Source of the DNA: a bacterium
Lineage (GTDB): Bacteria > Patescibacteriota > Doudnabacteria > UBA920
Assembly: GCA_016699995.1 (NCBI GenBank)
Contig: CP064996.1
Coordinates: 626,963 to 690,962, forward strand
Direction: 5' to 3'
DNA length: 64,000 nt
The translations under genes and the position numbers were made by a program. Below are positions 14,321-61,116 of the stretch, in pieces. Within the stretch, counting starts at the first letter, position 1, and every line of letters starts with the position of its first letter. The notes beneath the pieces were generated by a model. That model saw only the letters and a program-made list of their open reading frames with translations. It ran no database searches and was not told where the DNA came from.

Positions 14321-14414
<94 letters not shown>

Positions 14415-20815: not shown

Positions 20816-20903
20816 GGAGAGGTCGCATAGTGGTTTAGTGCAACGGTCTTGAAAACCGTCAGGTCTCAAAGCCTCGAGGGTTCGAATCCCTCCCTCTCCG
20901 CCA
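20816..20903 (+). tRNA. tRNA-Ser (anticodon TGA), type II
   Basis: Acceptor GGAGAGG/CCTCTCC-G-CCA. Anticodon stem ACGGT/ACCGT with loop CTTGAAA. Long variable arm. T-arm GAGGG-TTCGAAT-CCCTC. The 5' 18 nt and 3' 28 nt are identical to tRNA-Ser(GCT) at 14321. Confidence 0.9.
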
Positions 20904-26611: not shown

Positions 26612-28561
26612 CTATTGAGTTAATCCAGTGCTGGGAATTGCGCTGCCCACATTCTTGCAAGCCTCGACAAAACTGCTACCCAAAGTATCACCACGAAACC
26701 AATCCACTGCCCACGTGATGGGACCACCAGCAATTGTGGCAATCCAGCCGCTGCCGTCTGCACCGCTTGCATGACAGGCGGCCACAAATAGCACAAAAGC
26801 TAGCACAAAAATCATCAGTACAATTACAACGATAATAATGTTAACAGTATGAACCAACCAGCGCTGCCACCAAACTAATTTCACTCTTAAAATGAAGGCC
26901 ACCAAGACGATTATTTCCATTAGGATAAAAGTAAGGCCGAAAGTTGGAACCAGTCCATCGAGGCAGGCCATATAGGCCTTATCCAGAATAGCGGCCAGAC
27001 CAGCCTTGGCCGCCTGCTTAGCAGCTCCTTTTTTATCTCCGCTCAGAGCTTTGCTTGCGATATCCTGTATCTCCTTTGGGTCTATTCCACCCTTAGCTCC
27101 TTTTGCTCCGCCCATCTTACCGCCCGCGCCTGCACCCATCTTACCGCCTGCACCTGCGCCAGCTCCCGCGCCGCCTGCCTTTGCGCCCATACCACCTGCG
27201 ACTCCGCCCATCTTACCGCCCGCGCCTGCACCTGCGCCAGCTCCCGCGCCGCCTCCAGGCGCACCTATGCCACCTTTAGGCATAGAATTACCCCTAGCTC
27301 CGCCCAACTGAGACATCTTAGAATTCATTGCATCCGGCCCCCCTGCCCCACCATAACCTTTCAGTTTTTTAGGATCCTTGCCTAACTTTTCGAAGGCTTT
27401 GCTCTTTTGAGCAGGATCTTTTAATTGATCGGGGTTATCATTTTTCTGAGCGGCGGAGCGCTCGTCCTGCTTTTGCTCCTTTTGCGGGTCTTTGGATTCA
27501 TTATCCTTCTGATCTTTTCGTTCATCATCTTGTCGGTCATCTTTCTTATTGTCTTGCTGCTGGTCTTGAGGTTCTGTATCTACTTCGGCATCATCAGCAG
27601 AATCTTCCTCACTTTGATCTTCTTCATCATCCACATCCTCCGACCCTGCAACAGTCTCCGCAGACTGCTCATTAAGCAGCGCTTGCTGCTGACGGCGCAG
27701 ATCTTCTTCGTACTTCTCATTTGCTTTGCGGCTCTCTGACTTAGCTTGAGTTTCATTTTCCTGGATCATCTGTTCCATCGTTTCATCGTCCACGTCTAAA
27801 ATCGGCTCCTGCTCCATGCGCTGCCGCTCTCTTTCTATTACATCGTCCGGCAAATACATTTCTGGCTTATCTTTACTAGCCTTAAACTGAGCCGGCGATT
27901 TTTGAATACCACCTTGTGGCGGCCAGTACTCTCCGCCTATTTTTTTATTCAGCTGTGCTTCGTCCCATGCCTCTTCTGCCAACTTTTTATGAATATCCTG
28001 ACCCTTGTGATGCAAACTGCCATCTTTGTTGTATACATCCTGCGCACTGTAACCAAAACTTTCGTGGAACCCGCCAGAAGTAGCCATGCCCTCATAATTT
28101 TGCATACCGCTCGGCAAATGAGCCACTGTGAGCTGCACTCTTCCACCTGCGCCTTTCTTTAAAGAATACTCAGCTGCTATTTGGTGCATTAGCTTCCCGA
28201 CGCCCTTATACTCATCGCCATAAGACTTCATTGACTCTACGTACACCTTAGGTTTATATTTTCCAGACGGATCCGAACCATAAGTGAGGCGCTCGTGATT
28301 TTGGTGGAATTTGCCAGTTGTTTGTAAATCCTGAAGCTCAGTCTGACTATAATATTTTAAGAGCTCTTTTCCCACCATTCGGTCTTTGGGATCAAAAACA
28401 CCAACCTCTAACATGTCCCCATACTTACCAGCTCTAACGGTTACGGGAACTTTGCGGTTGGTGCCTTTTTCTATGACAAAACCCTGACCCACTTTAGGGC
28501 CAAAGGAATGAGACTCTGTTAATGAATCCACTTTAGCTCGGTCTTTTGCATCCGACGCCAT
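26612..28561 (-). CDS. modular T4SS-associated protein: N-terminal globular domain, acidic linker, Gly/Ala-rich repeats, C-terminal 3-TM anchor
   Basis: 649 aa. Residues 1-230 are globular with unknown fold. 280-400 are D/E/Q/K-rich. 410-480 carry (GAGAGAGAGGKMGG)n repeats. The C-terminal hydrophobic helices are TFGLTFILMEIIVLVAFIL, NIIIVVIVLMIFVLAFVLFVAA. Confidence 0.65.
   Translation of the reverse strand: MASDAKDRAKVDSLTESHSFGPKVGQGFVIEKGTNRKVPVTVRAGKYGDMLEVGVFDPKDRMVGKELLKYYSQTELQDLQTTGKFHQNHERLTYGSDPSGKYKPKVYVESMKSYGDEYKGVGKLMHQIAAEYSLKKGAGGRVQLTVAHLPSGMQNYEGMATSGGFHESFGYSAQDVYNKDGSLHHKGQDIHKKLAEEAWDEAQLNKKIGGEYWPPQGGIQKSPAQFKASKDKPEMYLPDDVIERERQRMEQEPILDVDDETMEQMIQENETQAKSESRKANEKYEEDLRRQQQALLNEQSAETVAGSEDVDDEEDQSEEDSADDAEVDTEPQDQQQDNKKDDRQDDERKDQKDNESKDPQKEQKQDERSAAQKNDNPDQLKDPAQKSKAFEKLGKDPKKLKGYGGAGGPDAMNSKMSQLGGARGNSMPKGGIGAPGGGAGAGAGAGAGGKMGGVAGGMGAKAGGAGAGAGAGGKMGAGAGGKMGGAKGAKGGIDPKEIQDIASKALSGDKKGAAKQAAKAGLAAILDKAYMACLDGLVPTFGLTFILMEIIVLVAFILRVKLVWWQRWLVHTVNIIIVVIVLMIFVLAFVLFVAACHASGADGSGWIATIAGGPITWAVDWFRGDTLGSSFVEACKNVGSAIPSTGLTQ
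27100..27290. repeat. imperfect tandem DNA repeats (~96 bp unit) encoding Gly/Ala-rich repeats
   Basis: CCATCTTACCGCCCGCGCCTGCACC recurs at about 27112 and 27208. Encodes the GAGAGAGAGGKMGG units on the minus strand. Confidence 0.6.
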
Positions 28562-28565
28562 AGGA

Positions 28566-30407
28566 TTACCTCAAATCTTCTTTGCTTTGCTCTATCTCTA
28601 ACAGCTGCTTCGGATCGGTGGTGATAATCTGGTCTTCGACATAAGAAGCATAAACCTTGATGGCTGCATGCTTAAGACCGGCGAAGAAAATACCCTCGCC
28701 CACATCGCTTTCCAGTAATAAATACTTCTCACCCTCCGTGAGGAAAAATGTTTCAGTGACAATATCGATAGCAGCAGGACTTTGCTTAAGCAGCAACTGA
28801 ATAGATGAGTTCGTAACAATCGGCTTGCCGTAAGTACTGGCCATGAAATCGGCTACATCCTGAGTAATGGTGGTGAGTCCTAGATAATACTTACGGGCTC
28901 GCTTGGCAATACCGAATACGAACCGAGCGGAGTCTTCGTGCTGCATCAAGATCCAGGCTTCGTCCAACACCAAAATACGTTTCTTTAATTCGCTTCGCAC
29001 CACATTCCAAATGTGGCCAAGAATTATATACATAGCAATCGGGCGCAACTGCTCTTCTAGATCGCGGATAGAAAACACCAGCAGCTGATTCTGCAGCACT
29101 ACATTGGTTTGGTTATTTAATAATCCGGCAAAAGTACCTTCGGTGAACTTGCCCAAGCGAAGCGCCAAGCTTTCGCCGCCAACCATGCCTCCCAAAATTT
29201 CTATCAAATCGCTCATGACCGGCATTTCGGCGGTAGCGAAATCAGAATTCTCGGTAATATCTTTTTTAGCATAAGTCTGCCAAATCGCCTTATCCATAAT
29301 GGCTTCTTCGGTCGGATCCAGCTTGCCCAACACCAAGCCCATTAAGCCGATGAGGCTGATAACCGCGCTACGTAAAATATCTGCCTTGTCCTCGTCTTGC
29401 AAACCGATCGGCAAGTCAAATGGATTAATACGAAAATCGGAGTTAAGAGAAATGTTTAAGAAGGTTCCGCCTACAGCTTCGGCTAAATGCTGATACTCAT
29501 TTTCGGGATCGATAACAATAACTTCGATGCCGATCATCAGCGAACGCAAAATTTCTAATTTTACGGAATAAGACTTGCCAGCACCAGACTTAGCGAACAC
29601 AACGGAATTAGCATTTTCCATTGCAAAGCGGTCGAATAAAACCAAACTATTATTGTGGCGGTTAATTCCGTACAGAATACCGTCGTTGCCGGTAAGATCC
29701 GAAGATACAAACGGAAAAGTGCTAGAGAGCGGGCTGGTATTAAGGTTGCTGGTTACATCTAGATCATCCAAGCACAATGGCAAAGTAGAATTATACCCCG
29801 CCTCTACCGCGAGCATGGCGCGTTTGGTCACTACTAATTTCGCACCCAAAGCGCTTTCTAAAACCTTAGAATTCTTGTCTAGCTCTTCGAGTGAGTCGGA
29901 GTACAAAGTAAAGTAAAGGGCAAAGCGGAAGAAGTGTTCTACTCCCTGCTGCAGCTGATCGCGAAGCTCTTCTACGTCGTGGTAAGCGGTCTCCAGCAAT
30001 GGGTTGCGGGCCAAGCCTTTTTCCTGTTCGATCGTAATCTGGGAGCCGATTTCACCCACTTTGCTACGCAGTTTTTTAAGTACCATGCCGGAATCGATCG
30101 GGTAAATGAACATGGATACATCTAGAGCGCTCTCGGAGTTGATAATAAAAGATAGCCAGTTAGAAGACAAGAATCGCGGATATGCCAAAACGAAAAAGCT
30201 GCGCCCAAACTTGCCGTTAAGTTCGAACCAAGAGTTGGTAAACTTTAAGCTGCTGGGAGCTAGTAAATCTTTTAGGGTAGTGACGCCTTCCCGATACTCT
30301 TTCTCTACTTCGGCCAGTTTGCCCTCGGCCGAAATCTTACCTTTAAGGTGTTCGAGCTCTTCCTTCTTCTTTTCTAATTCGGTTTTGTTAAATGAAAATA
30401 AGCTCAT
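28566..30407 (-). CDS. virB4: VirB4/TraC/CagE-family conjugative ATPase, C-terminal ATPase portion
   Basis: Walker A FAKSGAGKS, Walker B ILVLDEAW. Gram-positive/CPR type. The start codon overlaps the upstream ORF's stop (TAATG). Confidence 0.85.
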   Translation of the reverse strand: MSLFSFNKTELEKKKEELEHLKGKISAEGKLAEVEKEYREGVTTLKDLLAPSSLKFTNSWFELNGKFGRSFFVLAYPRFLSSNWLSFIINSESALDVSMFIYPIDSGMVLKKLRSKVGEIGSQITIEQEKGLARNPLLETAYHDVEELRDQLQQGVEHFFRFALYFTLYSDSLEELDKNSKVLESALGAKLVVTKRAMLAVEAGYNSTLPLCLDDLDVTSNLNTSPLSSTFPFVSSDLTGNDGILYGINRHNNSLVLFDRFAMENANSVVFAKSGAGKSYSVKLEILRSLMIGIEVIVIDPENEYQHLAEAVGGTFLNISLNSDFRINPFDLPIGLQDEDKADILRSAVISLIGLMGLVLGKLDPTEEAIMDKAIWQTYAKKDITENSDFATAEMPVMSDLIEILGGMVGGESLALRLGKFTEGTFAGLLNNQTNVVLQNQLLVFSIRDLEEQLRPIAMYIILGHIWNVVRSELKKRILVLDEAWILMQHEDSARFVFGIAKRARKYYLGLTTITQDVADFMASTYGKPIVTNSSIQLLLKQSPAAIDIVTETFFLTEGEKYLLLESDVGEGIFFAGLKHAAIKVYASYVEDQIITTDPKQLLEIEQSKEDLR

Positions 30408-31093
30408 TATTTTTGAATGTTTTTAATATCGGCTTTGCCTAATTGACTGGCATCGATGCTCGGACCGGACGCAAAGTTATAAGAGTTGTACACCAGCTCT
30501 ATGAGCTGGTCGGTGGTGAGCTTTACCACGCGCAGCCCGCTGCTACCTAAAGCCGCCGCGACAGTATTGGTGCGTTCATCCAACTGTTTTTTGTAAGTCT
30601 TTAAGTTAGATTCCCTGTCCGTAATCGCTTTAGTTTTTCCTGTGCCGAAAATCTTGCTAAAAATGCTGATGTTAGTCGGATTAATGCTCGTATCGTAAGG
30701 CACGATGACGTAAAAGTTCTTGCTCATGACGTTGGCTGTTTCTACCAAGCGGTCGATAAACTCTATATATTCCTGAGTCTGCATGCGCAGCAACTCGTTG
30801 TTTTGCTTTTCCATCATCACGCGCAGCTTTTCTGTATATTCCGCGATATCCATTTTGCGGGATTGGATCAAAATCTGAACATGAAATTCTAAAGAGTTTA
30901 AAAATCTTTGATAGCTATAAATAAGCGCGTTCTGCTCTTCTTCACTTTTTAAATCGAAGTTGGTGCTAGACACCGCCAATACAGTACGCAATGTGCCGTT
31001 ATCCATCACGATTAAATCGTCACGGATTTCTGCGAGACGTAAAAATTGCTGTGTCGGATTGCCTATTTGTTGTTTTTGTTTGTTTAACGCCAT
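30407..31093 (-). CDS. VirB4 N-terminal domain-like protein (split VirB4, translationally coupled)
   Basis: 228 aa with LIVMDNGTLRTVLAVSSTNFDLKSEEEQNALIYSYQRFLNSLEFHVQILIQS pattern like the VirB4/CagE N-terminal domain. 228 + 613 aa is roughly full VirB4 length. Confidence 0.5.
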   Translation of the reverse strand: MALNKQKQQIGNPTQQFLRLAEIRDDLIVMDNGTLRTVLAVSSTNFDLKSEEEQNALIYSYQRFLNSLEFHVQILIQSRKMDIAEYTEKLRVMMEKQNNELLRMQTQEYIEFIDRLVETANVMSKNFYVIVPYDTSINPTNISIFSKIFGTGKTKAITDRESNLKTYKKQLDERTNTVAAALGSSGLRVVKLTTDQLIELVYNSYNFASGPSIDASQLGKADIKNIQK

Positions 31094-31551
31094 TATTTAG
31101 CCTGATTTTGTTTGTTTTGATTGATTCTTTCGATCAGTTTGGTTTCTTCGCTCTGCTCCTTATTAAGCAAATAGTTGAGCTCCTTAATCTTTAGAGCAGT
31201 TTCCTTTAGGTCCTTTGGAGCGACTTTTTCTTCTGTTGGGATCGGCAGTGTCTGTTCGGCTTCTTCGTGGCCTGTCTTGTGGTAAACATACTGCTTGGGC
31301 CCGAACAAGAATTTAATAAAATTACCGAAGCTAGCATAAAGCGGCCGGCCGTTTAATTTGCCAAAAGTTAACGCCAGAGCTGGAACGCCAGATCCGAGAC
31401 CCGCTACCACAGTAGCTGGAACATTTTTTGTGATAGTGAAGATAACAAAGGTGAATACGCCTGCGCCAAAAATGATCGCAAACTGCTTAAAAGTTAAGCC
31501 TGCGATAATCTTATCTTCTACATCGGTAAATTGTGGGACTGGGAATTGCAT
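31093..31551 (-). CDS. VirB3/PrgI/TcpE-like small membrane protein of Gram-positive-type T4SS
   Basis: 152 aa. N-terminal FTDVEDKIIAGLTFKQFAIIFGAG motif and 2 TM, as in PrgI/TcpE proteins found just upstream of VirB4. Stop overlaps the next start. Confidence 0.5.
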   Translation of the reverse strand: MQFPVPQFTDVEDKIIAGLTFKQFAIIFGAGVFTFVIFTITKNVPATVVAGLGSGVPALALTFGKLNGRPLYASFGNFIKFLFGPKQYVYHKTGHEEAEQTLPIPTEEKVAPKDLKETALKIKELNYLLNKEQSEETKLIERINQNKQNQAK

Positions 31552-31565
31552 GTTAATTATATCAC

Positions 31566-32609
31566 TTATACACGGTTGACCTTAAGCGAAAGCAGAATGT
31601 CGCTAACGAATTCAAATTCCTCTTGAGATAAAGCCAAATTTTGGGTACGACCAGAGAGCATGCTCTTACCGTAATTCAAATAGTCCTTATATAGAGGGCT
31701 GTTTTCGAAACTGGTGAGGACTTGGAAGTATCCCTGTGTGGAAGCAAGATTTGTAATGGCTTCATGAAAGGTTTTACGATTCTGAACATGCAAAACCGAG
31801 CTGGTTATAGCGGCGACGTCCTCTGGAGACTTTAATTCTATATTCTGCGTAGGAGTATAGTTGTAAGCAGCCTGGCTTACAGGTTGAGCTTGGGGAATTG
31901 GCTTTGGCTCTACAGGAGGCATAGGAACAGACTCTTTCGCAGGTGCGGGTCTTTGGGGCACAGAAGCAGGCTGAGGCCTTGGAGGAGGAGCTGTCTGCAC
32001 TGGCCGCGGCGCTGGCCGAGGCGCTAATTGTTGAGATGATGAGGCAGGCGAATATTGTGCGGGATTCGGTTCGGCTTGCACTTGATCCGGCCTCATTATC
32101 AAATGAGGGCGAGGATTAATTGGCGGCATAGCGGCGGTAGAACTCGGCCTTGGAGTCTGCGGCATCGATTGTGGCTGTTCCGAAATCGGGGTAGGTCTAG
32201 AAGCACCTGGCTTAGGAACATTGACTTTGCTCGGTAAATTGCTTATATGAGACAGGGAGGACGCATTGATATGAGGCAACGGCTTAGAAGGTTTTGGTAC
32301 AGGCTGAGGCGCAGGTTGTTGTCGTGCCGGTTGCGGTCTTGGAGGAGGAGCTGTCTGCACCGGTTGCGGCGCGGGAACAGGCTGTGGTCGCGGTGCCGGC
32401 CGTTGAAATACTGGAGCAGGCTGAGGTACAGGATTTGGAGCAGGCTTCGGTTCTGGCTTTGGTCCCATTAGAATTTCTTCCAATTCGGCTACCTGCTTAT
32501 CATTCATAAGCTCTATTAGCGCCATCCACTCTGTTTTTTCCTGGTCGGTTAAAACATTGGAGGTGCGTACCAGGTTATGTATTTGTTTTAATTTTTGATC
32601 GCTAAGCAT
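31566..32609 (-). CDS. proline-rich protein with internal duplicated PRPQP repeats
   Basis: 347 aa. N-terminal helical segment, then about 200 aa P/Q/A-rich with the duplicated block RPAPRP(Q/V)...QTAPPPRPQPA. Conserved C-terminal ~90 aa. Confidence 0.6.
   Translation of the reverse strand: MLSDQKLKQIHNLVRTSNVLTDQEKTEWMALIELMNDKQVAELEEILMGPKPEPKPAPNPVPQPAPVFQRPAPRPQPVPAPQPVQTAPPPRPQPARQQPAPQPVPKPSKPLPHINASSLSHISNLPSKVNVPKPGASRPTPISEQPQSMPQTPRPSSTAAMPPINPRPHLIMRPDQVQAEPNPAQYSPASSSQQLAPRPAPRPVQTAPPPRPQPASVPQRPAPAKESVPMPPVEPKPIPQAQPVSQAAYNYTPTQNIELKSPEDVAAITSSVLHVQNRKTFHEAITNLASTQGYFQVLTSFENSPLYKDYLNYGKSMLSGRTQNLALSQEEFEFVSDILLSLKVNRV
31976..32363. repeat. direct DNA repeat (~28 bp core GG(C/T)CTTGGAGGAGGAGCTGTCTGCAC) 360 bp apart
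   Basis: 31976-32003 and 32336-32363 are near-identical. They underlie the protein-level duplication in the Pro-rich ORF. Confidence 0.6.
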
Positions 32610-33571
32610 ATATTTATGAATTTTTCTTTTTGCGCTTTTTTTAAGTCGTCCAATTTAACCTGAATTTTGAGAAGCTCAACCTGGCGATGCTGGCGGGCCT
32701 TAGCTTCTGCATCAATATCTATATTTGTGGGGGTGTCGTAAACCAAACCTTTTTTATCCTGGCCGCCGAGCTTAAGCTTATCTTTGGTTCCAATTTTATA
32801 CAAAGGCGGTGCGTCGGGCTGAGAAGGAATAATTGGTACAGGTTTTCGTTTTTGTATAGGCTGTGGCTTAGGAACAACCGGCGGCTCTACTACTGGAATA
32901 ATTGTTTGCTGAGCAGCGTACTGTTCGGCACCTTCCGCCAAGGCATTATCCATTTCTTCTAAGTAAGCTTCGAATTCTGCCATTTCATCTTCAGGAATCT
33001 CTTCCGGTAACTCTTCCCAAAACTTCGCATACTGAGCCATGCGGTCATAGATTCGGAAAATATTCTTTAGAATTTCGCGTCGGGCGATAGTAAGTGTTTG
33101 AGGGTTTGGAGAACGGTTTATATAGCGAATCTCTTCTAACACATCGTGACGAATAGTGACGGCATCCGCTAAATCCTTAATCCAGTTGGAAATGGTGGGC
33201 GGTACATTTTTCTCCTTCACTACTATTGGCTTATCCCCCAGCAACTCCTGATGCTGTTCAATAATGCTCTTTAATCCTGTTATAAGCTCTACCTGATCTG
33301 GAACAGAATCGATTAGCTCTATATAATCGGATAATTTTTCTTCCAGGTTAAAATCCGGGATCTCGTAGGCAGTTAAAATGGATTCTTTAACCAAATTCAT
33401 TAGTCTCTGCGGGCTTAAACTGCTCATGGTTAAATAGCTCAGCTTGAGATAAGCTTTTTTATCCAGCCTCATCTCATTATCCCGATTTGAGGCAATCAAA
33501 AGCTCGCGGGCAAGAATATTGTCCTGGTATTGGATTGCATAATCGATTTTTGATTGCAGAGCAGTGTTCAT
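32588..33571 (-). CDS. hypothetical T4SS-cluster protein
   Basis: 327 aa, helical and acidic, with a Pro-rich segment (PVVPKPQPIQKRKPVPIIPSQPDAPP). No motif. Confidence 0.55.
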   Translation of the reverse strand: MNTALQSKIDYAIQYQDNILARELLIASNRDNEMRLDKKAYLKLSYLTMSSLSPQRLMNLVKESILTAYEIPDFNLEEKLSDYIELIDSVPDQVELITGLKSIIEQHQELLGDKPIVVKEKNVPPTISNWIKDLADAVTIRHDVLEEIRYINRSPNPQTLTIARREILKNIFRIYDRMAQYAKFWEELPEEIPEDEMAEFEAYLEEMDNALAEGAEQYAAQQTIIPVVEPPVVPKPQPIQKRKPVPIIPSQPDAPPLYKIGTKDKLKLGGQDKKGLVYDTPTNIDIDAEAKARQHRQVELLKIQVKLDDLKKAQKEKFINICLAIKN

Positions 33572-33583
33572 TTCAATTTATTT

Positions 33584-36500
33584 TTATACTAAGTCGGGAG
33601 GATTAAAATCCGGCGGTAAAGGGTTTGCGCCAGTAGTTGTATTGTTCGTTCCGGGGTTTGTTGTCCGACCACCTGTGCCGGTTCCACCACCAGGAGGTGT
33701 GCCAGGATTAGCCGGTGGCACATACGGTCTAGCCATCGTCGGACCGCCTCCTGCTATAGGCCCGCCTCCGCCTCCCGGTGCGCCAGGAGCGCCAGGGGCT
33801 CCGGGAGTTCCAGCTGGGCCAGCTGGGCCTGCTGGGCCAGCTCCGCCCGCTGGACCTGTTCCACCCCTGCCTCCACGTCCACCGGTTCCGCCAGTCGCAC
33901 CAGCTGCACCCGTGGCGCCTGTTGCGCCAGGGGCTCCAGCAGCGCCGCGTGGACCTGCTACAAATTTCCTGCCTGCGACATCCTCTAATGCGGCTCTAAT
34001 CTCCTTGCCCATATTTTTGCCCATTGCCTTAAAATCATCCTCAGTGATCACATCCAAAATCTGACCAGCTCTCTCCTTAGACATATCGCGTTTTACCTGT
34101 TTGGCCTTCTCTGTAGTATTCAATGCAGACAACCATTTAACCAACCCTGGGGTGGCTTCTTCTCTATTAGTTGTAGGATTGAAATGCTTAATATCGCCTT
34201 CTTTAACATCTTTGATTCCCAGCTTTGCAAACCGTTTTTCTACGTCCACCATTTGCGCCTGGTAAGACTTGATGATGCCGCCGCCACTAGGCATGTTCTT
34301 TACGGCATATCCCAAAGGAATAGCGCCGTTTTTAGCTGCGGTATTGGAAATCTCTCTAAATACGTTGGTCTGGTTGCGTTCGGAAGTCTTAAACTTATCT
34401 TTCACCATTTTCTCCAAGCCGACAATATTGTACTGGTAGGGATCCCCATTATCATCCTTCATGTTCTTCATAAGCTTGTCGGCCATTCCTGTTTCGGCAA
34501 TCTGCTTAACATATGCTCGCGCTTGTACAAAATTATTCTTCTTTAAAGCATCTAAGAAACCGGCTTCCAGCTGATCATAATCTAAATCCAAATCGGCAAT
34601 TTCCTTCTTTTGCTTCATAACCTCCATAGCTTCTTCCTTCTCCAAAGCCTTAGAATATGGGCGCTGGTATTTTTCTGCTTCTGTATTTAGTCGGGTAACT
34701 TCTTTTAGCAAAGCCTCCTTTACGCCATCGTTCATAGGGCCGTTGTAGCCCAGCTCTCGGCGCTTCGCTTGATCATTATCAATTACAGAAGTAGCATCGG
34801 CAATTTTCCTCTGCAGTTCATCCGTTATTTTTGTGGTGTCCACTACTGGTTCGATAGGATCACCTGGTGCCATTAATCCCTGCTGAACAAGCCCGCCTGG
34901 ATCGGTGACTATGCCGGTAGCCGGGTCTACGACTTCCGGATGATCAACCTTCATGTCCAAATTAACCTGCAAGTCTGCCAGGCTCACTTCGGTCGCTCCG
35001 GTAGCAACTGCATTGTTTACTGCATCTTCCAGAACATCGCGGCGAGCCTTAACTTGAGCTTCCTGATACTTAAGATCGCGGTTGCCAGGATCCTTCAAAA
35101 CAGCCTGTTCTGCCTTTTCGGAATCTTCATTCAATTTCGCAAGCTCGTCCTGAGCCTGAGCCAAAGTCAAACGGCCGGCTGATAGATCATTATATTTCTG
35201 CTGATCAGCGTCACGCTGGTCTGCTACGCCCCTAATTTCATCGTCATTCTTGATTTCCGTAGCAATGCGCTGATTGCGTTTTGCTTCTTCGAGCATAGGC
35301 GCACCAGGATCTTTTCCGCGCAGCTTGCGCCATGCCCACTGGGCACCCATGATTTTGTTTTCACCAAACGGCTGCAAGAAATTACTAACTTTCTTAAAGT
35401 CATCTGCAAACCGGCCGTTCATCTGTTCCTTTGGAATGTCGAAGTAACCTTTCTTAGCCGCCTTTAAGAACTCTTTCGGCCTTGCTACTGCGCGAATGGC
35501 TTTTTGCAAGCCAGGCTTCTTGTCTATGCCAAACAGCTTAGAGTTAGCCAAACTGTCTGCGCCGGTATCCTTAGCCCATTTGCCGCCCCAAACGGCTGCT
35601 TTGCCGGCGCCGCCGGCCACGGCCAATGGAGCGGTTTTGGTAACGAAGTCAAAGCCCTTCTTGGCAAACTTAACAATCTGCTGGGCCCCAACCGTACCGC
35701 TGCTTTGGGCAAACTTCATACCAAGGAACAGGAAAAACAGCACGACGAAATGCGAAATAACTGTAATTACATACTCAGCCAGCTCTCCGGAAATCCCTCC
35801 TAGCAAGAAGGTGCGATCGCGTCCCGCTACCACTGTATCGCCATTCTTGGAAGCAAAAGTTGTAGCCATTAGAGCGGCAATATTTAGGAAGAATGCCAAT
35901 ATGGGAACCGTAAAGGCATGCTTGATAAACATATCCCACCATTGATCCCAGTACTTTTTTGTATCCGGTAAAATTCTGGCAACGTAGGCTATTGGCGACA
36001 CCATATACAAAATCCACAGCACAACCAGCCTGATGATAATGAAGGCGATCAGTGCGACGAAGGCAAAAAATGCAGCTATTGCCAACACAAGTAGTATAAT
36101 AGGCTTGGTAAGATCACTAGCACTGGCATCAACCGAGAAGTTGCTGCTATCCGTAACTCCTGCACCGCTGCTTTGACCCCTAAAAAACTTGATAGGATCA
36201 ACCATCAATTTTTGACCGAGCGCTTCTATGACCTTGCTTTCTGCTGGCAGGAACTGAGCCTGCACAGTGTCGGCGATACCAACTACTCCTTGCGCAATGA
36301 CCAAGCTAAAATTGACCAGCAATGCCATCAGCACGAGCCACAAAATAAAGCCCCGGGTTTTGCCAGAATCATCGACTTGAAACAGAACACGCAGACCCAT
36401 CCATAACAACGCGACTATGAACCCGATGTTTGCTAGGTTGCGCATAATGACCCAGCCCGGGTAAATGAAGTTTACGAACTCATCTTTATGAGCGTAAATA

Positions 36501-38188
36501 TTTAGCAATGCGTTCAAGACCGGCACAAGAATGAACGCGAAGATCCAATAAATTACACCAGTAATTAACAGAACAATGTAAGAAATGACCCTGCGGATAA
36601 AGTTGAATAGATCGCTTCCGTTAGATTTTTCAGGATCTTCGTTGGAACTGGTGGTTTGGGTCACTGTGTCCGCAAAGCCAAATTTTGCATAATTGTCATC
36701 ATCGCATTTTGCTTTTTCTTCGTCAGTAGTTTTTTCCGCCTTACAAGCAGCCTTAATATCGTCTATTTTTTCGTAAACTTCTACAGTAAATTTTTCTAAT
36801 CCACCAGATCCAGCAATTAAAATAACACCATTGCTAACCAACAAGTTAAAAATCGAGATAGGGATACTGCCCTTTGTGCCGCCTATGGCAGGCAAAGCAA
36901 CGAATTCCGCAGAGCCATAAGGCTTACCAGCCTCGGGGGTTTTTGTTGTATCTACCTTGCTTAGCCATGCCTTAGATTTCAATAACGGGCTGTAATCGTA
37001 CCCTCCCGTCGGAGGGATGTACTCCGCCTGAGAAGGATCCCCCAAATCACCAGTGCTGTGCTTTGAGCTAAAAATTAATCCACTACAATCAGTACCAGTA
37101 AAAGTCGGTAGACAAGCGATCTTGCTCTTCCCCTTAACAGACGAAGCATACCCAAAATATATAACACTGCCGATGTACTTAGGAGTAAAATCTACCCCCG
37201 TCCAGCTATCGTCTTTTTGAGGCAGGGTAAAATACTGGAGTTTACCTAGCGGAGTACCACCCCATTCCACATGGACTTTATCCAGACCGCCAGTACCGGC
37301 AAATCTCATATCCCCGTCTGTTTTTAGAACGCGATATTTTTTTCTTAGGCCATACCCGTCTTTATTGGCCTTTATGGCAATAGATATCTTTTGATAATCA
37401 ACAGTTTGGGTATTATCGGTGTCACCATCCCCGCTGCCTTCCACATTTGGCAAGTCTCGAGCTGGGGGGCTATTATCCGTTTTATCCTTATTATGCTGAA
37501 TAGTCTGATTTGCCAACCAAGTTCCGGACCTGTTTGAACCGCCATACATATAAGCGTACAAGTAATATTCAGACCGGTACGACCCGCGTATGCTTCTAAC
37601 GCTCTGTTCCAATTTTTCGACAGTAACACCATTCTTGCGGCAATGAAACCCGTACGAATTATTCGCTTCGTCATAATACATCTTGGCCGTACAGAACAGT
37701 TCGTAATTTGTAGGGCGAACTGTGGGTATATAAGAAGTCAAACCTAACGCTGCAACATACGCATAAACCTCAAAAGTATAACTATTTTCCTTATTTTGCT
37801 CCTTACATTTATCTGCCAATTCCTTAGTAATCGGAACCTTCATATAAATATCGAATGGTTCCTTAGTACCTACAGTGTCTTTGCTCAGCAACATCTGGTA
37901 GCCGCTGCTGATGACGCCTGCTGTGTCAAAAATACGGCCAATAGAAACATTGGTACAGTCTACTGCCGCTTGAGCTTCCGGTATAGATGTTAGTGATTCA
38001 AAAACAGCTCTACCGTCTGAATTAGGTGAAATAAGACTGAGAAAAGGCAAAAACAAAGAAGCGATCAGAATCCCCAGGACAGTTTTCTGGAAGATTCCAA
38101 TGCCTCTTTTACTATTCCTGCTGCCGGCTTTATTCCGCAGTTTTTGAGTCAAAAATTGAATGAATTTTGGTATTGATTTCTGTATCAC
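33584..38188 (-). CDS. giant VirB6/TrbL-like polytopic membrane protein with large ectodomain and collagen-like Gly-X-Y C-terminal tail
   Basis: 1534 aa. N-terminal signal/TM. A ~520 aa extracellular region. A ~300 aa block of at least 6 TM helices (VirB6-like: LLITGVIYWIFAFILVPVL..., LVLMALLVNFSLVIAQGVVG...). A long coiled-coil cytoplasmic region. The C-terminal ~110 aa are GPRGAAGAPGATGATGAAGATGGTGGRGG...GTPGAPGAPGAPGGGG. Confidence 0.7.
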   Translation of the reverse strand: MIQKSIPKFIQFLTQKLRNKAGSRNSKRGIGIFQKTVLGILIASLFLPFLSLISPNSDGRAVFESLTSIPEAQAAVDCTNVSIGRIFDTAGVISSGYQMLLSKDTVGTKEPFDIYMKVPITKELADKCKEQNKENSYTFEVYAYVAALGLTSYIPTVRPTNYELFCTAKMYYDEANNSYGFHCRKNGVTVEKLEQSVRSIRGSYRSEYYLYAYMYGGSNRSGTWLANQTIQHNKDKTDNSPPARDLPNVEGSGDGDTDNTQTVDYQKISIAIKANKDGYGLRKKYRVLKTDGDMRFAGTGGLDKVHVEWGGTPLGKLQYFTLPQKDDSWTGVDFTPKYIGSVIYFGYASSVKGKSKIACLPTFTGTDCSGLIFSSKHSTGDLGDPSQAEYIPPTGGYDYSPLLKSKAWLSKVDTTKTPEAGKPYGSAEFVALPAIGGTKGSIPISIFNLLVSNGVILIAGSGGLEKFTVEVYEKIDDIKAACKAEKTTDEEKAKCDDDNYAKFGFADTVTQTTSSNEDPEKSNGSDLFNFIRRVISYIVLLITGVIYWIFAFILVPVLNALLNIYAHKDEFVNFIYPGWVIMRNLANIGFIVALLWMGLRVLFQVDDSGKTRGFILWLVLMALLVNFSLVIAQGVVGIADTVQAQFLPAESKVIEALGQKLMVDPIKFFRGQSSGAGVTDSSNFSVDASASDLTKPIILLVLAIAAFFAFVALIAFIIIRLVVLWILYMVSPIAYVARILPDTKKYWDQWWDMFIKHAFTVPILAFFLNIAALMATTFASKNGDTVVAGRDRTFLLGGISGELAEYVITVISHFVVLFFLFLGMKFAQSSGTVGAQQIVKFAKKGFDFVTKTAPLAVAGGAGKAAVWGGKWAKDTGADSLANSKLFGIDKKPGLQKAIRAVARPKEFLKAAKKGYFDIPKEQMNGRFADDFKKVSNFLQPFGENKIMGAQWAWRKLRGKDPGAPMLEEAKRNQRIATEIKNDDEIRGVADQRDADQQKYNDLSAGRLTLAQAQDELAKLNEDSEKAEQAVLKDPGNRDLKYQEAQVKARRDVLEDAVNNAVATGATEVSLADLQVNLDMKVDHPEVVDPATGIVTDPGGLVQQGLMAPGDPIEPVVDTTKITDELQRKIADATSVIDNDQAKRRELGYNGPMNDGVKEALLKEVTRLNTEAEKYQRPYSKALEKEEAMEVMKQKKEIADLDLDYDQLEAGFLDALKKNNFVQARAYVKQIAETGMADKLMKNMKDDNGDPYQYNIVGLEKMVKDKFKTSERNQTNVFREISNTAAKNGAIPLGYAVKNMPSGGGIIKSYQAQMVDVEKRFAKLGIKDVKEGDIKHFNPTTNREEATPGLVKWLSALNTTEKAKQVKRDMSKERAGQILDVITEDDFKAMGKNMGKEIRAALEDVAGRKFVAGPRGAAGAPGATGATGAAGATGGTGGRGGRGGTGPAGGAGPAGPAGPAGTPGAPGAPGAPGGGGGPIAGGGPTMARPYVPPANPGTPPGGGTGTGGRTTNPGTNNTTTGANPLPPDFNPPDLV

Positions 38189-38304: not shown

Positions 38305-39951
38305 TTATGGCATTTCGCCGCGGGGAGCGAAGTTAGAACGTCTCGGGGAGAACTCAGAAGTTTGCACCCCCTGGACGTTGCCGCCGCCAGAACCCCCGGA
38401 GCTTGGTGTGCCCGGCGGAACGATAGGAGGAGTAAATCCTGGTACGCCGCCCTGAGGCAACTGGGAAACCAAATCCCCGATCGTCCCATTAAGCGCTGTC
38501 ATGCCGGCTTCCTTAAAGATTTTACCGCTGCTCTTACCGCCAGTGATTAAGTTGGTAAGGAAGTTGCTGGCCACATCAGACAAGAAGCTCGCGTAGAATG
38601 GCAAGTTGTCGCTCTTCAGCTGAGAGCCCTGATCCAAATGCTGCTTAACAAAATTAGTTAGCTGATCGCTTACAAAAGTTGCAGGAGAGTCTATTACCGG
38701 ACAAATGTCTGAAACAGGATCAGGGTCTTCTGCAGGCAACTGTTTAAGCTTGGCGTCGAGTTCGTTAAACTTAGCTTTCGCTTTGTCCAATTCTGCCTGA
38801 GTTGTTTTCTTGGCGGCCAATGCCTGCTCCAATTTAACTACTATATCTGCCGCAGCCACTACTTCTGCAGATAACTTTTCCCACTTTTGATCGATAGAAG
38901 CCTGGCGGCCCACTAAATCTTTACAATCACGCGGCGGAGCAAAGCCATTGCTCTGCTGAACTTCCTTAGTGGCAGTTTCCATACCAGCAGCTTTTACCTT
39001 TTGAGCATTATCTTGGCTGACTTGAAGCTGAAAAGCCGGGCTGGCATTTTCGGCTCCATATGCCGCCAAGCAACGCAGAGAGTTTGCATCGTTAACATTA
39101 AGTTGCGGAGTGCTGCCGCACATCGCTCCCAGATAGTCTTGGGCTTTGGTTGTAGCAAATGCCTGGGCTACCTTAGCCTTGTTAGGCAATTTTTCACTCT
39201 GAATTAGAGAGCGAAGCATCATCTGGGTACGGGCGTCGCCCTTATAATTCTCGTTAATATACTTCATCGAGTAAATTTGCACTCCCACAGCATCGGCATA
39301 AGCCAAGTAATCATCAATCTTATACTTCTGAACCATGCCGTTAACCAGCTTTGTGGTTAAGTTTTTGTTGAGGTTGAGCACCAGCTTAACCATGAAGGCT
39401 TTAAGCACGTCTTTAATGCTAGCGCTTTGGCGAGCCTTTAGATCTTCGATTACCACGCGCAATGCCTCACTGGTCTTGCTAAATTTATCCTGCTCTCTTT
39501 GCAATTCCTGGCCCATAGTCACGGTTACTGTGGGAGCAGCCCGCAAAGCGGTTACATAAATATCAATACATTCCTTGGCTGCGGTGGCCTTAACTATTTT
39601 CGCAGTCAATTGAGTAGACTCACCGATGCCTCCACCGATTACGCTCAGAAAGGAGCTGGAAGCAACATCTGTAAAGCTTTCTACTGCATCGGAGTTATCT
39701 GCAGCTGCGATGACGGTCGTACAAGTGGAGCTCAATGTTCCACGGATGGAATTAATCGCGGCCGAAGCATTGCCTGGCAAGCCAATTAAATTATTTGTCG
39801 TGATCACTCCTGTCGTCAAAGGAGACAACGGCAATTCCGAAGTAGGAACAGCCAGCTGCGCCTGAGCCTGCGCGCTAAACGAAAAAATCGCTCCGCCTAG
39901 GGAAGCTAGTGTGATGCTAAAGATTAAAAAAGAAATTAGGGCGCGCTTCAT
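38305..39951 (-). CDS. secreted T4SS-cluster protein (signal peptide)
   Basis: 548 aa. N-terminal signal peptide (LIFSITLASLGGAIFSFSAQAQA). Helical and coiled-coil rich. C-terminal Gly/Pro-rich tail. Confidence 0.65.
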   Translation of the reverse strand: MKRALISFLIFSITLASLGGAIFSFSAQAQAQLAVPTSELPLSPLTTGVITTNNLIGLPGNASAAINSIRGTLSSTCTTVIAAADNSDAVESFTDVASSSFLSVIGGGIGESTQLTAKIVKATAAKECIDIYVTALRAAPTVTVTMGQELQREQDKFSKTSEALRVVIEDLKARQSASIKDVLKAFMVKLVLNLNKNLTTKLVNGMVQKYKIDDYLAYADAVGVQIYSMKYINENYKGDARTQMMLRSLIQSEKLPNKAKVAQAFATTKAQDYLGAMCGSTPQLNVNDANSLRCLAAYGAENASPAFQLQVSQDNAQKVKAAGMETATKEVQQSNGFAPPRDCKDLVGRQASIDQKWEKLSAEVVAAADIVVKLEQALAAKKTTQAELDKAKAKFNELDAKLKQLPAEDPDPVSDICPVIDSPATFVSDQLTNFVKQHLDQGSQLKSDNLPFYASFLSDVASNFLTNLITGGKSSGKIFKEAGMTALNGTIGDLVSQLPQGGVPGFTPPIVPPGTPSSGGSGGGNVQGVQTSEFSPRRSNFAPRGEMP

Positions 39952-50558: not shown

Positions 50559-50631
50559 AGTTTTATTATATCAGAAAAGCCACCGAAAACGGTGGCTTTA
50601 AAGGATTTTTTATGAATTTATCGGGGAGTAA

Positions 50632-50935
<304 letters not shown>

Positions 50936-51498: not shown

Positions 51499-52860
51499 CT
51501 AAACTCCCACTAGACCAAGCCAGATTCCGACGCCGTTTACGCTGGTCTGGACTTCATAGTCAACTTCCACTTCGAGGCTGGTTTTAACCTGGTTGATAAA
51601 GGTCTTTTTGCGGTCCACAATGATGGTCAATACGTTGGCCAAATTTTCATCGGCGGTTGTGTAATACAAATCAACTAGCTGCCCCACCTGAAAACCGCTT
51701 TTCTTGCGCAAATCCTGAATGGCACGCTCTAATTCTCGCGCTAAGCCTTCATTCTTTAATTCCGGCGTAATTTCCAAGTTCAAACCAACGCTCAATTTTC
51801 CTTCAGATTTAACTGCCCAGTTGCTGCGCTCAACAACTTCGGCGCTGGTGACCTTTTTTACATTCAGCTCCTCCGCCAAAATAGCTTCGAGGGACGAGTC
51901 CAAAGCCTGACCTTCTTCGCCAAAACTATACTGCAATTCTCCCAGTGGTTGACGGACCTTTAGATTCTGCTCCTTGCGCAAGGACAAGCCGAGCTCAACC
52001 AGGCTGCGCATCGCTTCCATTTCTTCCAGAACGCTCTCCCTGTAATCGCGCACCTCGCTCCACTTGGCCAAGTGCACAGATTTTTCTCCTGTTAGATCCC
52101 TATAAATTTGTTCGGAAATGTACGGCATGATCGGGGCAAGCATTTTAGAGATTTCCACTAGAGTAAAGCCAAGCACAGACAAAGCTGCCTTGGAGTCTTC
52201 ATTACCGGCCTTCATGCGATCGCGGCTGCGTCGAACGAACCAAGTAGAAAGCTCTGTTACCAAGTCGCTCAAAGCGCGCCCCGTCTTGGTAGTGTTATAG
52301 CGGTCCATTTGTTCGGTAACTTCTTTGTGCGCGGCGGCCAACTTAGTGAGCATCCACACATCCATGCTGTGAGTTACATTTGGAATTTCTGTACTGACTT
52401 TGTCCTGGCTGTACATGCGGAAAAATTTAAAGGTATTCCACAAAATTAAACTCAGCTTGCGGTTTACTTCCGAAACCCCCGTCTCGGAGAAGCTTAAATC
52501 CTCTCCGGCAACCACCGGGCTGTTAACTAGATAGAACCGAATCGGATCCATGCCATAGCGTTCAATCAGTTCGTACGGATCCGGGAAGTTGTTCTTGGAT
52601 TTGCTCATCTTGCTACCGTCTTCAGCCAGAATCGTACCGGTAGTTACCACATTCTTAAATGGAGCTTTATCGAACAATATCGTACTCATCACATGCATCA
52701 CATAAAACCACGCGCGCGTCTGAGGAATGTATTCTGCCACAAAGTCAGCCGGCATGCGCTGTTCAAACAATGCCTGGTTCTCGAAGGGAGCGTGAAGCTC
52801 CGCAAAGGGCATGCTGGCAGATTCCACCCAGCAATCCACCACTTCCGGAATGCGTGTCAT
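51499..52860 (-). CDS. ileS: isoleucyl-tRNA synthetase, C-terminal fragment (KMSKS + anticodon-binding); frameshifted relative to N-terminal fragment
   Basis: RIPEVVDCWVESASMPF (like E-x-DV-DvWFdSG) and KMSKSKNN. The frame opens only after a TGA at about 52905. Confidence 0.75.
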   Translation of the reverse strand: MTRIPEVVDCWVESASMPFAELHAPFENQALFEQRMPADFVAEYIPQTRAWFYVMHVMSTILFDKAPFKNVVTTGTILAEDGSKMSKSKNNFPDPYELIERYGMDPIRFYLVNSPVVAGEDLSFSETGVSEVNRKLSLILWNTFKFFRMYSQDKVSTEIPNVTHSMDVWMLTKLAAAHKEVTEQMDRYNTTKTGRALSDLVTELSTWFVRRSRDRMKAGNEDSKAALSVLGFTLVEISKMLAPIMPYISEQIYRDLTGEKSVHLAKWSEVRDYRESVLEEMEAMRSLVELGLSLRKEQNLKVRQPLGELQYSFGEEGQALDSSLEAILAEELNVKKVTSAEVVERSNWAVKSEGKLSVGLNLEITPELKNEGLARELERAIQDLRKKSGFQVGQLVDLYYTTADENLANVLTIIVDRKKTFINQVKTSLEVEVDYEVQTSVNGVGIWLGLVGV

Positions 52861-60728: not shown

Positions 60729-61116
60729 GGGGATGCCGGATTTCGACAGGACTTCGACATCGCTCTATATGCAAGACGAGCCAGCTTGCAAGCTCGTAAA
60801 TCTTACAAGCAACCATAAGTGTAAACTCATGGAACAAGGTCGTTACCGCATTTAAAAATGCGCAACTTGCACCTGCGTTCGCTTAACATTTAGGCAAACG
60901 CCTGGTCCTCTGCCCCGCTCTGGGCAGAGATCCGCCAGATTATTTTGAGCTATAGTGTTGTTGTCCGATATATGCAATAACACCGAAATTTTATATATCG
61001 ACCATTAGCTTAGTTGTTCGTTGTAAGGCTAGTGGTAACTTAAACGAACTAATCTTGTGAACAATGGAACGGTGAAAAAGACTTGGACGCGGGTTTAACT
61101 CCCGCCATCTCCACCA
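60729..61116 (+). ncRNA. ssrA: transfer-messenger RNA (tmRNA, ssrA)
   Basis: 5' GGGGATGCCGGATTTCGACAGG (E. coli has GGGGCUGAUUCUGGAUUCGACGGG). 3' GGACGCGGGTTTAACTCCCGCCATCTCCACCA (E. coli has GGACGCGGGUUCAACUCCCGCCAGCUCCACCA). Acceptor stem has the G3:U wobble. smpB lies 4 kb upstream. Candidate tag ORF GCA TTT AAA AAT GCG CAA CTT GCA CCT GCG TTC GCT TAA (AFKNAQLAPAFA*) at 60848-60896. Confidence 0.85.

Follow-up and report, generated by a model that had tools for sequence, protein, structure and literature searches.

A collagen-like Gly-X-Y tract at the C-terminal end of an extended VirB6-like protein of Patescibacteria

The C-terminal end of an extended VirB6/TrbL-like protein encoded in a Patescibacteria type IV secretion cluster was found to contain 22 uninterrupted Gly-X-Y triplets, and this tract was unique to the protein among the about 290 homologues examined. 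The tract opens a glycine/proline-rich C-terminal tail of 123 residues (residues 1412-1534; 369 bp). The tail is read, at about an even chance, as a lineage-specific disordered or polyproline-II tether arising from 9-bp in-frame expansion and not as a core part of secretion. All positions are those of the window, that is, the whole 64-kb stretch of DNA that was analysed.

Results

Gly-X-Y tract and terminal segment

The collagen-like tract (66 aa, residues 1412-1477; 33758..33955, minus strand) was found to contain the triplets GPR, GAA, GAP, GAT, GAT, GAA, GAT, GGT, GGR, GGR and GGT, followed by the triplets GPA, GGA, GPA, GPA, GPA, GTP, GAP, GAP, GAP, GGG and GGP. Glycine was present at every third residue over all 22 triplets, at least about 20 being the length looked for; when the 123-residue tail was shuffled 200,000 times, no in-register glycine run was longer than 14. 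The tract was the only run of at least six triplets in the six frames of the window. The X positions were occupied by A (9), G (7), P (5) and T (1), and the Y positions by A (7), P (6), T (5), R (3) and G (1), giving Ala 16, Pro 11 (25%), Gly 8 (18%), Thr 6 and Arg 3 (all at Y) over the 44 X/Y positions. Asp, Glu and Lys were absent from these positions, and the tract is without charge pairs since it contains no acidic and only three basic residues.

In a phmmer search against the PDB, the tract was found to align in register with collagen alpha-2(I) and alpha-1(I) chains (summed E 2e-20; best single stretch i-E 0.004). The collagen-like character assigned in the preliminary description was borne out by this alignment and by the perfect Gly-X-Y periodicity. 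No match to Pfam Collagen (PF01391) was found in the 135-aa tail and the 705-aa C-terminal part (hmmscan, E<=10) or in the full protein (E<=0.01), a result to which the HMMER bias filters may contribute. The 570 aa flanking the tract contained no Pfam domain (hmmscan) and no recognisable trimerisation module.

The tract was followed by the presence of an aperiodic G/P/T/N-rich terminal segment (57 residues, 1478-1534; 33587..33757, minus strand; pLDDT 35-42). The last 11 residues, LPPDFNPPDLV (33587..33619, minus strand), were the sole hydrophobic/acidic patch in the tail and may be a candidate docking motif. A near-continuous repeat had been described over the last ~110 residues, which is correct for the 66 strictly periodic residues and overstated for the final 57, where period-3 glycine was absent. 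The whole tail was modelled by AlphaFold at pLDDT 34-42 without secondary structure, the domain immediately before it being at about 90, and the helical domain was found to stop about 6 residues before the tract in the AlphaFold monomer.

Coding frame and 9-bp arrays

Two 9-bp tandem arrays were found inside the tract by TRF (33780..33853, no strand assigned), namely GCGCCAGGA x3.1 at 33780-33807, encoding (GAP)3, and CCAGCTGGG x4.9 at 33810-33853, encoding (GPA)4. The 9-mer consensus of the tract was GGCGCACCT, to which the units matched at 3-8 of 9 positions, and synonymous codons were found to be mixed through the tract. The earlier wording of a repeat-driven sequence is in keeping with the two short arrays and is qualified by the mixed codons. 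Gly-X-Y periodicity would arise automatically from the expansion of 9-bp GGN-GCN/CCN-NCN units. A 3- or 6-bp indel would break the register, yet the register was perfect, so that some selection for period-3 glycine is possible.

The GC3 of the tract was 0.38 against 0.46 for the gene, both being AT-biased, and the tract overall was 76% GC. The coding frame is that of the minus strand, since third codon positions there are AT-biased like those of the rest of the gene, and the tract is native and translated in the annotated frame since its GC3 is near the gene value. A P/A/G-rich antisense ORF of 166 aa (33564..34064, plus strand) was found to mirror the GGN/GCN/CCN codons of the minus strand, and it was rightly called spurious in the preliminary description, the minus-strand GC3 fitting the gene. 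A frameshift origin of the extension was rejected, as no homopolymer was present to cause one and the third codon positions fit the annotated frame.

Host protein

The tail belongs to a protein of 1534 aa with a GTG start (33584..38188 including the stop codon, minus strand; ORF list and homology), which was identical to NCBI IPM19_03535, annotated as hypothetical and encoded on a 943-kb contig. An N-terminal ectodomain with 8 Cys (residues 56-522; 36623..38023, minus strand) was found after a signal-anchor/signal peptide, followed by the presence of the hydrophobic VirB6/TrbL core, assigned by Pfam, AlphaFold and Foldseek (residues 523-829; 35702..36622, minus strand), and of an all-alpha C-terminal domain, Cys-free and K/R-rich near the membrane (residues 830-1411; 33956..35701, minus strand). 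The tract therefore lies where it had been placed earlier, at the extreme C-terminus of the giant protein and past the hydrophobic block. The core was found to contain seven long helices, most of them hydrophobic, as in the VirB6/TrbL fold, and residues 694-739 formed a single 46-residue helix in the AlphaFold model.

The C-terminal domain was modelled at pLDDT ~86-96 over most of residues ~960-1405 and with low confidence over ~860-960, and its later part was conserved among closer homologues. A long coiled coil had been proposed before the tail; the model contained in its place a multi-helix all-alpha domain of ~580 residues with helices of at most 40 residues. The Cys of the ectodomain had a median of 4 across the family and were even in number in 82% of the members, and the C-terminal region contained a mean of 0.09 Cys per about 546 aa. 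As a marker of location the Cys content was set aside as ambiguous, since the exclusion of Cys suits helical K/E-rich, exported and translocated domains alike.

The protein is a VirB6-family protein, the extended subunit of a type IV secretion cluster of Patescibacteria (Saccharibacteria-type). Its Pfam TrbL (PF04610) score was 20.6 bits, under the gathering score of 25.9, which was passed by homologues linked to it at E<1e-100, namely P0004 (27.0), P0016 (26.8) and P0025 (30.9). A TrbL match at E<=0.001 was found in 15 of 40 homologues, with a best E of 6.8e-9. The top five Foldseek matches in the PDB were TrwI/VirB6 chains of the R388 stalk, at probability 0.99-1.00 and target-normalised TM 0.45-0.56 with weak E-values (0.05-0.5). 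The sequence profile search of the PDB did not reach TrwI/VirB6 and returned only weak coiled-coil-type matches (E 0.3-0.9).

Gene cluster

The VirB6-like gene was found to be encoded with a PrgI/VirB3-like gene (31093..31551, minus strand; PF12666, E 5e-10) and a VirB4-like ATPase gene (28566..30407, minus strand; TraG P-loop E 9e-24, AAA_10, DUF87), all on the same strand. The synteny with PrgI and VirB4 was kept in locus L001 and in both P0039 loci. The next gene begins 12 nt past the stop codon of the VirB6-like gene, and the two downstream genes (31566..33571, minus strand) encode proteins of 327 aa and 347 aa without signal peptides, both with long Pro-rich low-complexity tracts; their counterparts in L001 were of low complexity too. 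The wider neighbours were chromosomal housekeeping genes, and no phage context was found.

Distribution among homologues

The homologue set of about 290 sequences consisted of the 150 best HMMER representatives, 72 GTDB ORFs and 72 JGI ORFs. A collagen-like run was found in 0 of the 150 best representatives (exhaustive HMMER, 13,164 matches at E<=1e-3), in 0 of the 72 complete ORFs of GTDB genomes and in 0 of the 72 ORFs of JGI metagenomes. With about 290 relatives lacking it, the tail looks like a one-off flexible extension rather than a functional part that the family conserves. The 41%-identical homologue P0002 was found to terminate, with ALKERAEKGSKL at its end, exactly at the tract start, and most homologues in a 42-sequence alignment terminated at residues 1402-1414 of the query. 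Other C-terminal ends were variable, with P/T/S/Q/K-rich low-complexity tails in P0025, P0036, P0037, P0040, P0041, P0052 and P0147, a (GGGT)n end in L017 and a short Gly-rich end in L090/L091.

The GTDB species genomes contained 268 relatives of the protein, and among the best 80 of these 268 nearly all were titled Candidatus Saccharibacteria, Doudnabacteria or Patescibacteria group. When GTDB genomes and JGI metagenomes were scanned with single proteins, no close relative was found, and the ten clusters looked up, including that of the query, were all singletons. When the full protein was used as query in a word-indexed protein search, only the protein itself and a single homologue were recovered. 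The same search with residues 1150-1411 returned nothing, not even the query, and its index was judged too insensitive.

Positional orthologue P0039

P0039 was found on two independent contigs, from JGI metagenomes 3300071358 and 3300071325, with a gene order matching that of the window (UvrD, KsgA, DUF192, ..., VirB6-like, ..., PrgI, TraC-like, VirB4). After the same hydrophobic block as in the query, it contained a GGTPPPGG-type linker of about 110 aa and then a J-domain that carries the HPD motif (PF00226, 36.7 bits; gathering score 27.8). P0039 thus resembles the query in its cluster order, hydrophobic block and ~110-aa Gly/Pro-rich low-complexity C-terminal stretch, whereas its Gly/Pro/Ser-rich linker is without period-3 glycine and ends in a folded J-domain, the query ending in the short LPPDFNPPDLV patch. 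The C-terminal region of P0039 aligned with the query to about residue 930 only (phmmer best stretch), so that the analogy is positional and not residue by residue. No compartment-specific domain other than this J-domain was found by Pfam in 69 C-terminal regions and 40 full-length homologues.

Discussion

Origin and role of the tail

In-frame expansion and divergence of 9-bp (three-codon) GGN-GCN/CCN-NCN units most likely built the tail, which prolongs the extended VirB6 subunit past its folded all-alpha C-terminal domain. A cytoplasmic position is probable for the tail, which would act there as a flexible spacer or tether, at most about 19 nm long when extended, and its terminal LPPDFNPPDLV patch may be presented to a partner. 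Such a tether would parallel P0039, whose Gly/Pro-rich linker at the same position holds the DnaJ J-domain.

The tail could also be a functionless, nearly neutral low-complexity expansion by 9-bp slippage, losable and with no partner or structural role, which is considered unlikely. The single-member protein cluster, the absence of the tract from about 290 homologues, the unrelated low-complexity tails on other family members and the 9-bp arrays agree with such an origin, but the glycine register was perfect over 22 units despite diverged third positions and synonymous codons, and 369 bp of dead weight in a cluster of essential type would be unexpected, Patescibacteria genomes being strongly reduced. 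An assembly or frame artefact of the long-read MAG, in which the true gene would stop near residue 1411 like its homologues, is hardly credible. Local errors were present on the contig, where a class-I tRNA synthetase was broken into two ORFs that overlap and where poly-C and poly-G alternated over a 240-nt block, the alternative frames through the tract were largely open and an out-of-frame TAG was present at residues 1409-1410. However, no homopolymer of at least 5 nt was found between 33584 and 34013, the tract is complex sequence with mixed codons, and its third-position composition fits the annotated frame. The 369 nt are moreover additional DNA, located past the conserved end and ahead of the next gene, which points to the insertion of something, whatever the frame. 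A genuine cytoplasmic collagen triple helix, in which three C-termini would form a rigid rod of ~19 nm beneath the channel, is very unlikely. The 22 uninterrupted triplets match the Pfam collagen repeat in length (20 triplets), and are joined in favour of the helix by the three Arg at Y positions, by Pro at 25% of X/Y and by the in-register alignment with collagen chains; the folded helical domain ~6 residues before the tract could nucleate the helix, and recombinant bacterial collagens fold in the E. coli cytoplasm without hydroxyproline. These points are set against the presence of Gly at 8 and Ala at 16 of the 44 X/Y positions, Gly at X or Y being reportedly among the most destabilising residues on the Persikov host-guest scale. 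A recognisable trimerisation domain, charge pairs and a Pfam Collagen match were all absent, the tract was not conserved, and the VirB6 oligomer is pentameric in the known structure.

The tail is probably cytoplasmic, on the basis of the K/R-rich flank after the last helix and of the P0039 J-domain. Over the 60 aa that follow the last hydrophobic helix, a median of 10 K+R against 4 D+E was found in 150 homologues, and the 60-aa flank in alignment A1 contained 7.4 against 3.0. The cytoplasmic side named in the preliminary description is the more likely one by these positive-inside counts and the J-domain, and is opposed by the helix parity of the AlphaFold model and by the R388 structure. Were the C-terminal domain extracellular, as in an R388-type stalk or F TraG, the tract would be a surface collagen-like stalk or adhesin for host contact, which is quite unlikely. 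With residues 694-739 modelled as one helix, six hydrophobic helices follow the ectodomain in the AlphaFold model, and this even number would place the C-terminus outside. The fold of the query matches TrwI/VirB6, and in the pentameric R388 VirB6 structure two helices only span the membrane and the rest is a periplasmic stalk; this structure and the F-plasmid TraG allow an outside location of the C-terminus. An exported or translocated domain would likewise be in keeping with the near Cys-free C-terminal region, and the bacterial collagen-like proteins known so far are found at the surface (PMC8968730). Against an outside tail stand the family-wide K/R-rich segment after the last hydrophobic helix, the paired Cys in the ectodomain with none in the C-terminal domain, the mismatch of a trimeric helix to a pentameric VirB6, and the J-domain at the same end of P0039, which requires cytoplasmic DnaK. 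The C-terminus of A. tumefaciens VirB6 is reportedly cytoplasmic by reporter fusions, which also counts against it.

A real triple helix on the VirB6 subunit, either a cytoplasmic rod under the machine or, if exported, a host-contact stalk, has a slim chance. Such a helix would bring a collagen-type structural element into type IV secretion for the first time and, in the cytoplasmic case, would be a rare natural intracellular triple helix. Nothing was found to indicate a collagen triple helix or a family-wide function for the tract, which was missing from every homologue examined; in the preliminary description, homologues without the tail had been counted as neutral.

The tail alone, confined to one lineage and probably unstructured, adds little, and the comparison of C-terminal ends to which it led tells more. 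The C-terminal end of the giant VirB6 tolerates variable Gly/Pro-rich linkers, and the linker of one orthologue bears a J-domain, which together point to a cytoplasmic recruiting role at this end. The same comparison offers a way to test the topology of VirB6, which is disputed. In Ca. Southlakia epibionticum, the only Patescibacterium in which this was tested, epibiotic growth required the type IV secretion genes (PMC12857230, PMC12102498).

Comparison with known systems

Full-text literature searches aimed at VirB6 gave no report of a Gly-X-Y collagen-like tract on such a protein, and searches for collagen-like repeats, either cytoplasmic in bacteria or from the candidate phyla radiation, gave nothing relevant. 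The known bacterial collagen-like proteins include Scl1/Scl2 of Streptococcus pyogenes, BclA of Bacillus anthracis and Bucl8 of Burkholderia (PMC8968730). The tract resembles them in its uninterrupted Gly-X-Y with Pro, Thr and Ala at X/Y and no hydroxyproline expected. However, they are secreted and surface-anchored with an adjacent trimerisation domain, whereas the tract is found at the end of a polytopic membrane protein, probably on the cytoplasmic side. Their stability comes from many charged/polar residues, high Pro or glycosylated Thr, whereas the tract was found to contain Gly at 18% of X/Y, no acidic residues and no Pfam Collagen match. Phage tail-fibre collagen segments are short Gly-X-Y runs made and resized by in-frame repeat slippage, as is probable for the tract, but they are extracellular, have a built-in trimeric organisation and lie next to trimeric fibre domains, and the present gene is without phage context.

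The VirB6 of MPF-FA systems contains 700-900 aa with 'additional unstructured domains', and other extended types are RvhB6 of Rickettsiales and TraG of F (PMC12857230); VirB6 homologues of Patescibacteria have been described by Quinonero-Coronel et al. 2025 (PMC12102498). The present protein resembles the extended VirB6 proteins in its hydrophobic multi-helix VirB6/TrbL core with large hydrophilic domains, in its adjacent PrgI/VirB3 and VirB4 genes and in its TrwI/VirB6 fold, unstructured segments being a known feature of that group. As in the extended-VirB6 systems, its gene is chromosomal and the genome very small. The family to which it belongs is larger (1000-1550 aa) than the known extended VirB6 proteins, and differs from them in a Cys-paired N-terminal ectodomain of ~470 aa and an all-alpha C-terminal domain of ~580 aa.

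Identity of the giant protein

The gene at 33584-38188 (minus strand) was found to encode a VirB6-like protein of 1534 residues, identical to the NCBI entry 'hypothetical protein IPM19_03535 [bacterium]' (943-kb contig). The protein scored 20.6 bits against Pfam TrbL/VirB6, below the gathering score of 25.9, and the homologues P0004 (27.0), P0016 (26.8) and P0025 (30.9 bits) scored above it; TrbL was matched by 15 of 40 homologues (best E 6.8e-9). The same cluster was found to contain PrgI/VirB3 (31093-31551) and a VirB4-type ATPase (28566-30407), both Pfam matches on the minus strand, and was flanked by the housekeeping genes UvrD, KsgA, RadA and RecG. Its gene order was found again in the related locus L001 and in two loci of the positional orthologue P0039 from JGI metagenomes. 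With residues 500-1411 as query, an exhaustive HMMER search gave 13,164 representatives (E<=1e-3). Of the best 150, most were giants of 1000-1550 aa and some were shorter fragments. The 268 relatives in GTDB species genomes were nearly all Candidatus Saccharibacteria, Doudnabacteria or 'Patescibacteria group' MAGs. The protein is the VirB6 of the type IV secretion system known from Patescibacteria.

The AlphaFold2 model (residues 500-1534, 41 homologues, mean pLDDT 74) contained seven long helices at residues 523-829, followed by a poorly resolved linker, an all-alpha domain from ~960 to ~1405 (pLDDT mostly 86-96) and residues 1412-1534 without any structure (pLDDT 34-42). The long coiled coil described earlier before the tail was not borne out, the model showing a helix bundle with helices of at most 40 residues. 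The top Foldseek matches in the PDB were TrwI/VirB6 chains of the R388 stalk (probability 0.99-1.00, target-normalised TM 0.45-0.56, E 0.05-0.5). The C-terminal domain was found to have no confident structural or sequence relative by Foldseek against the PDB or by profile search of PDB sequences.

The Gly-X-Y tract

The tail (residues 1412-1534) was found to contain 22 uninterrupted Gly-X-Y triplets at residues 1412-1477 (33758-33955, minus strand), namely GPR GAA GAP GAT GAT GAA GAT GGT GGR GGR GGT followed by GPA GGA GPA GPA GPA GTP GAP GAP GAP GGG GGP. When the 123-residue tail was shuffled 200,000 times, in-register Gly runs reached 14 at most, and no other run of at least six such triplets was present in any frame of the window. 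The tract reported in the preliminary description was thereby confirmed, whereas its extent of about 110 residues was overstated, because the collagen-like part covers 66 residues and the final 57 (PIAGGGPTMARPYVPPANPGTPPGGGTGTGGRTTNPGTNNTTTGANPLPPDFNPPDLV) are G/P/T/N-rich and aperiodic. The GC content of the tract was 76% and its GC3 0.38 against 0.46 for the rest of the gene, third positions being AT-biased in both, and synonymous codons were mixed; the tract is therefore native coding sequence in the annotated minus-strand frame. The antisense ORF 33564-34064 is spurious, as had been stated, and mirrors the tract codons. Only two tandem arrays were detected by TRF in the tract, both short with a 9-bp unit, encoding (GAP)3 and (GPA)4.

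Distribution of the tail

By sequence comparison, the tail is not a feature of the VirB6 family. The homologue P0002 (41% identity) stops at …ALKERAEKGSKL, precisely where the protein runs on into GPRGAAG, and most homologues in the 42-sequence alignment terminate at residues 1402-1414. No collagen-like run was present in the best 150 of the 13,164 representatives or in 72 complete ORFs each of GTDB genomes and JGI metagenomes. Unrelated low-complexity material was found to recur at or near the C-terminal end of homologues, such as P/T/S/Q/K-rich tails, a (GGGT)n piece in L017 and, in L090/L091, a short terminus rich in Gly. The closest relative showed 54% identity, none nearer was found in the single-protein scans of GTDB genomes and JGI metagenomes, and the 90% cluster had a single member.

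Other proteins of the cluster and window

The two genes downstream of the VirB6-like gene (31566-33571, minus strand) encode proteins of 327 and 347 aa without signal peptides and with long Pro-rich tracts of the PQPxP type, and their L001 counterparts were also of low complexity. The cluster thus seems to have conserved disordered Pro-rich segments, and the cytoplasmic side of the machine seems rich in disorder.

The 649-aa protein just downstream of VirB4 (26612-28561, minus strand; no Pfam match) contained a long acidic/Lys-rich tract, C-terminal hydrophobic segments and a (GAGAGAGGKMGG)-type Gly/Ala-rich repeat of 24-bp period (TRF 27111-27232). The 368-aa L001 protein at this position contained a charged low-complexity region followed by TM segments, but not the repeat. 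The 548-aa protein directly upstream of the VirB6-like gene (38305-39951, minus strand; no Pfam match) contained a signal peptide and a G/P/S-rich terminal tail (GGVPGFTPPIVPPGTPSSGGSGGGN...); a 655-aa gene without a Pfam match on record occupies the corresponding position in the P0039 locus.

The window also contained a tmRNA gene (60729-61116, plus strand; Rfam 123.9 bits; tag peptide VNSWNKVVTAFKNAQLAPAFA) and two tRNA-Ser genes (14321-14414 and 20816-20903). An intergenic block of ~240 nt (50630-50870) consisted of alternating C and G homopolymer runs of ~7 to 31 nt, giving spurious poly-Pro/poly-Gly ORFs in every frame; it probably arose during assembly or polishing of a long-read MAG as an artefact, though it may be a G-quadruplex/i-motif element. 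A class-I tRNA synthetase (IleRS-like; 51499-54499, minus strand) was split into two overlapping ORFs, 52763-54499 matching tRNA-synt_1 profile positions 2-267 and 51499-52860 matching positions 293-412 with the anticodon-binding domain. This split implies a frameshift near 52763-52860, which may be a sequencing error or may truly disrupt an essential gene.

Location of the tail

The cytoplasmic location given in the preliminary description is probable, with evidence on both sides. The 60 residues past the last hydrophobic helix contained a median of 10 K+R against 4 D+E in 150 homologues, and 7.4 against 3.0 in the homologue alignment. An N-in/ectodomain-out/C-in arrangement would place ~15 K+R in inside loops against ~6 outside (our own sum of the alignment's loop counts), if residues 694-739 form a hairpin, assumed around the invariant Arg720. 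In P0039, found on two independent contigs (JGI samples 3300071358 and 3300071325) with the synteny of the window, the same hydrophobic block was followed, without a later hydrophobic segment, by a Gly/Pro/Ser linker of ~110 aa (GGTPPPGG type) and then, at the C-terminus, by a DnaJ J-domain that carries the HPD motif (36.7 bits; gathering score 27.8). J-domains work on DnaK, which is cytoplasmic in bacteria. Against the cytoplasm, AlphaFold gave residues 694-739 as one 46-residue helix, so that six hydrophobic helices follow the ectodomain and the C-terminus is predicted to lie outside. In F TraG, the C-terminal domain is periplasmic. In the R388 structure, VirB6 spans the membrane with alpha-1 and alpha-2 alone, and its remaining five helices make up a pentameric stalk in the periplasm. 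Cysteine content does not decide between the two sides: the N-terminal ectodomain (~470 aa; 36623-38023, minus strand) contained a family median of 4 Cys, even-numbered in 82% of members, and the ~546 aa that follow the hydrophobic block were nearly Cys-free (mean 0.09 across 118 members).

Proposed origin and role of the tail

The tail is most likely a lineage-specific extension, disordered or of PPII type, produced by in-frame expansion of 9-bp units where the C-terminus tolerates additions. Its probable place is the cytoplasm, where it would serve as a spacer or tether, the 66 tract residues spanning ~19 nm when fully extended (0.286 nm per residue), and may present the terminal LPPDFNPPDLV patch as the P0039 linker presents its J-domain. 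Among four alternatives, most weight falls on an expansion of the same tail that has no function, followed by an extracellular collagen-like stalk.

A cytoplasmic collagen triple helix comes third. As regards a triple helix on either side of the membrane, the tract is collagen-like by sequence definition, was aligned in register by phmmer with the alpha-2(I) and alpha-1(I) chains of collagen, and kept its register over 22 units while synonymous sites diverged; however, Pfam Collagen was unreported for the tail even at E<=10, the 44 X/Y positions contained 8 Gly and 16 Ala and no acidic residue was present in the tract, no trimerisation module was detectable, the tract is not conserved, and the only VirB6 assembly of known structure is a pentamer. 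A 9-bp unit starting with a Gly codon would also yield the period without triple-helix selection. Least weight was given to an assembly artefact, which the split synthetase and the poly-C/poly-G block on the same contig favour, but the tract was free of homopolymers and has a codon bias in keeping with the annotated frame.

Comparison with known systems

The preliminary description thus stood in its observation and in part in its interpretation. The tail alone is of modest interest, and the linker-plus-module architecture recurring at the VirB6 C-terminal end is the more useful lead. Its foremost case is the J-domain fusion of P0039, which, judged from the HPD-bearing domain on two contigs, suggests that DnaK (Hsp70) is recruited to the base of a type IV secretion system in Patescibacteria. 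That system and its VirB6 have been described (PMC12102498, PMC12857230), and the present protein is a new, single-lineage variant of the already known extended VirB6 of Patescibacteria.
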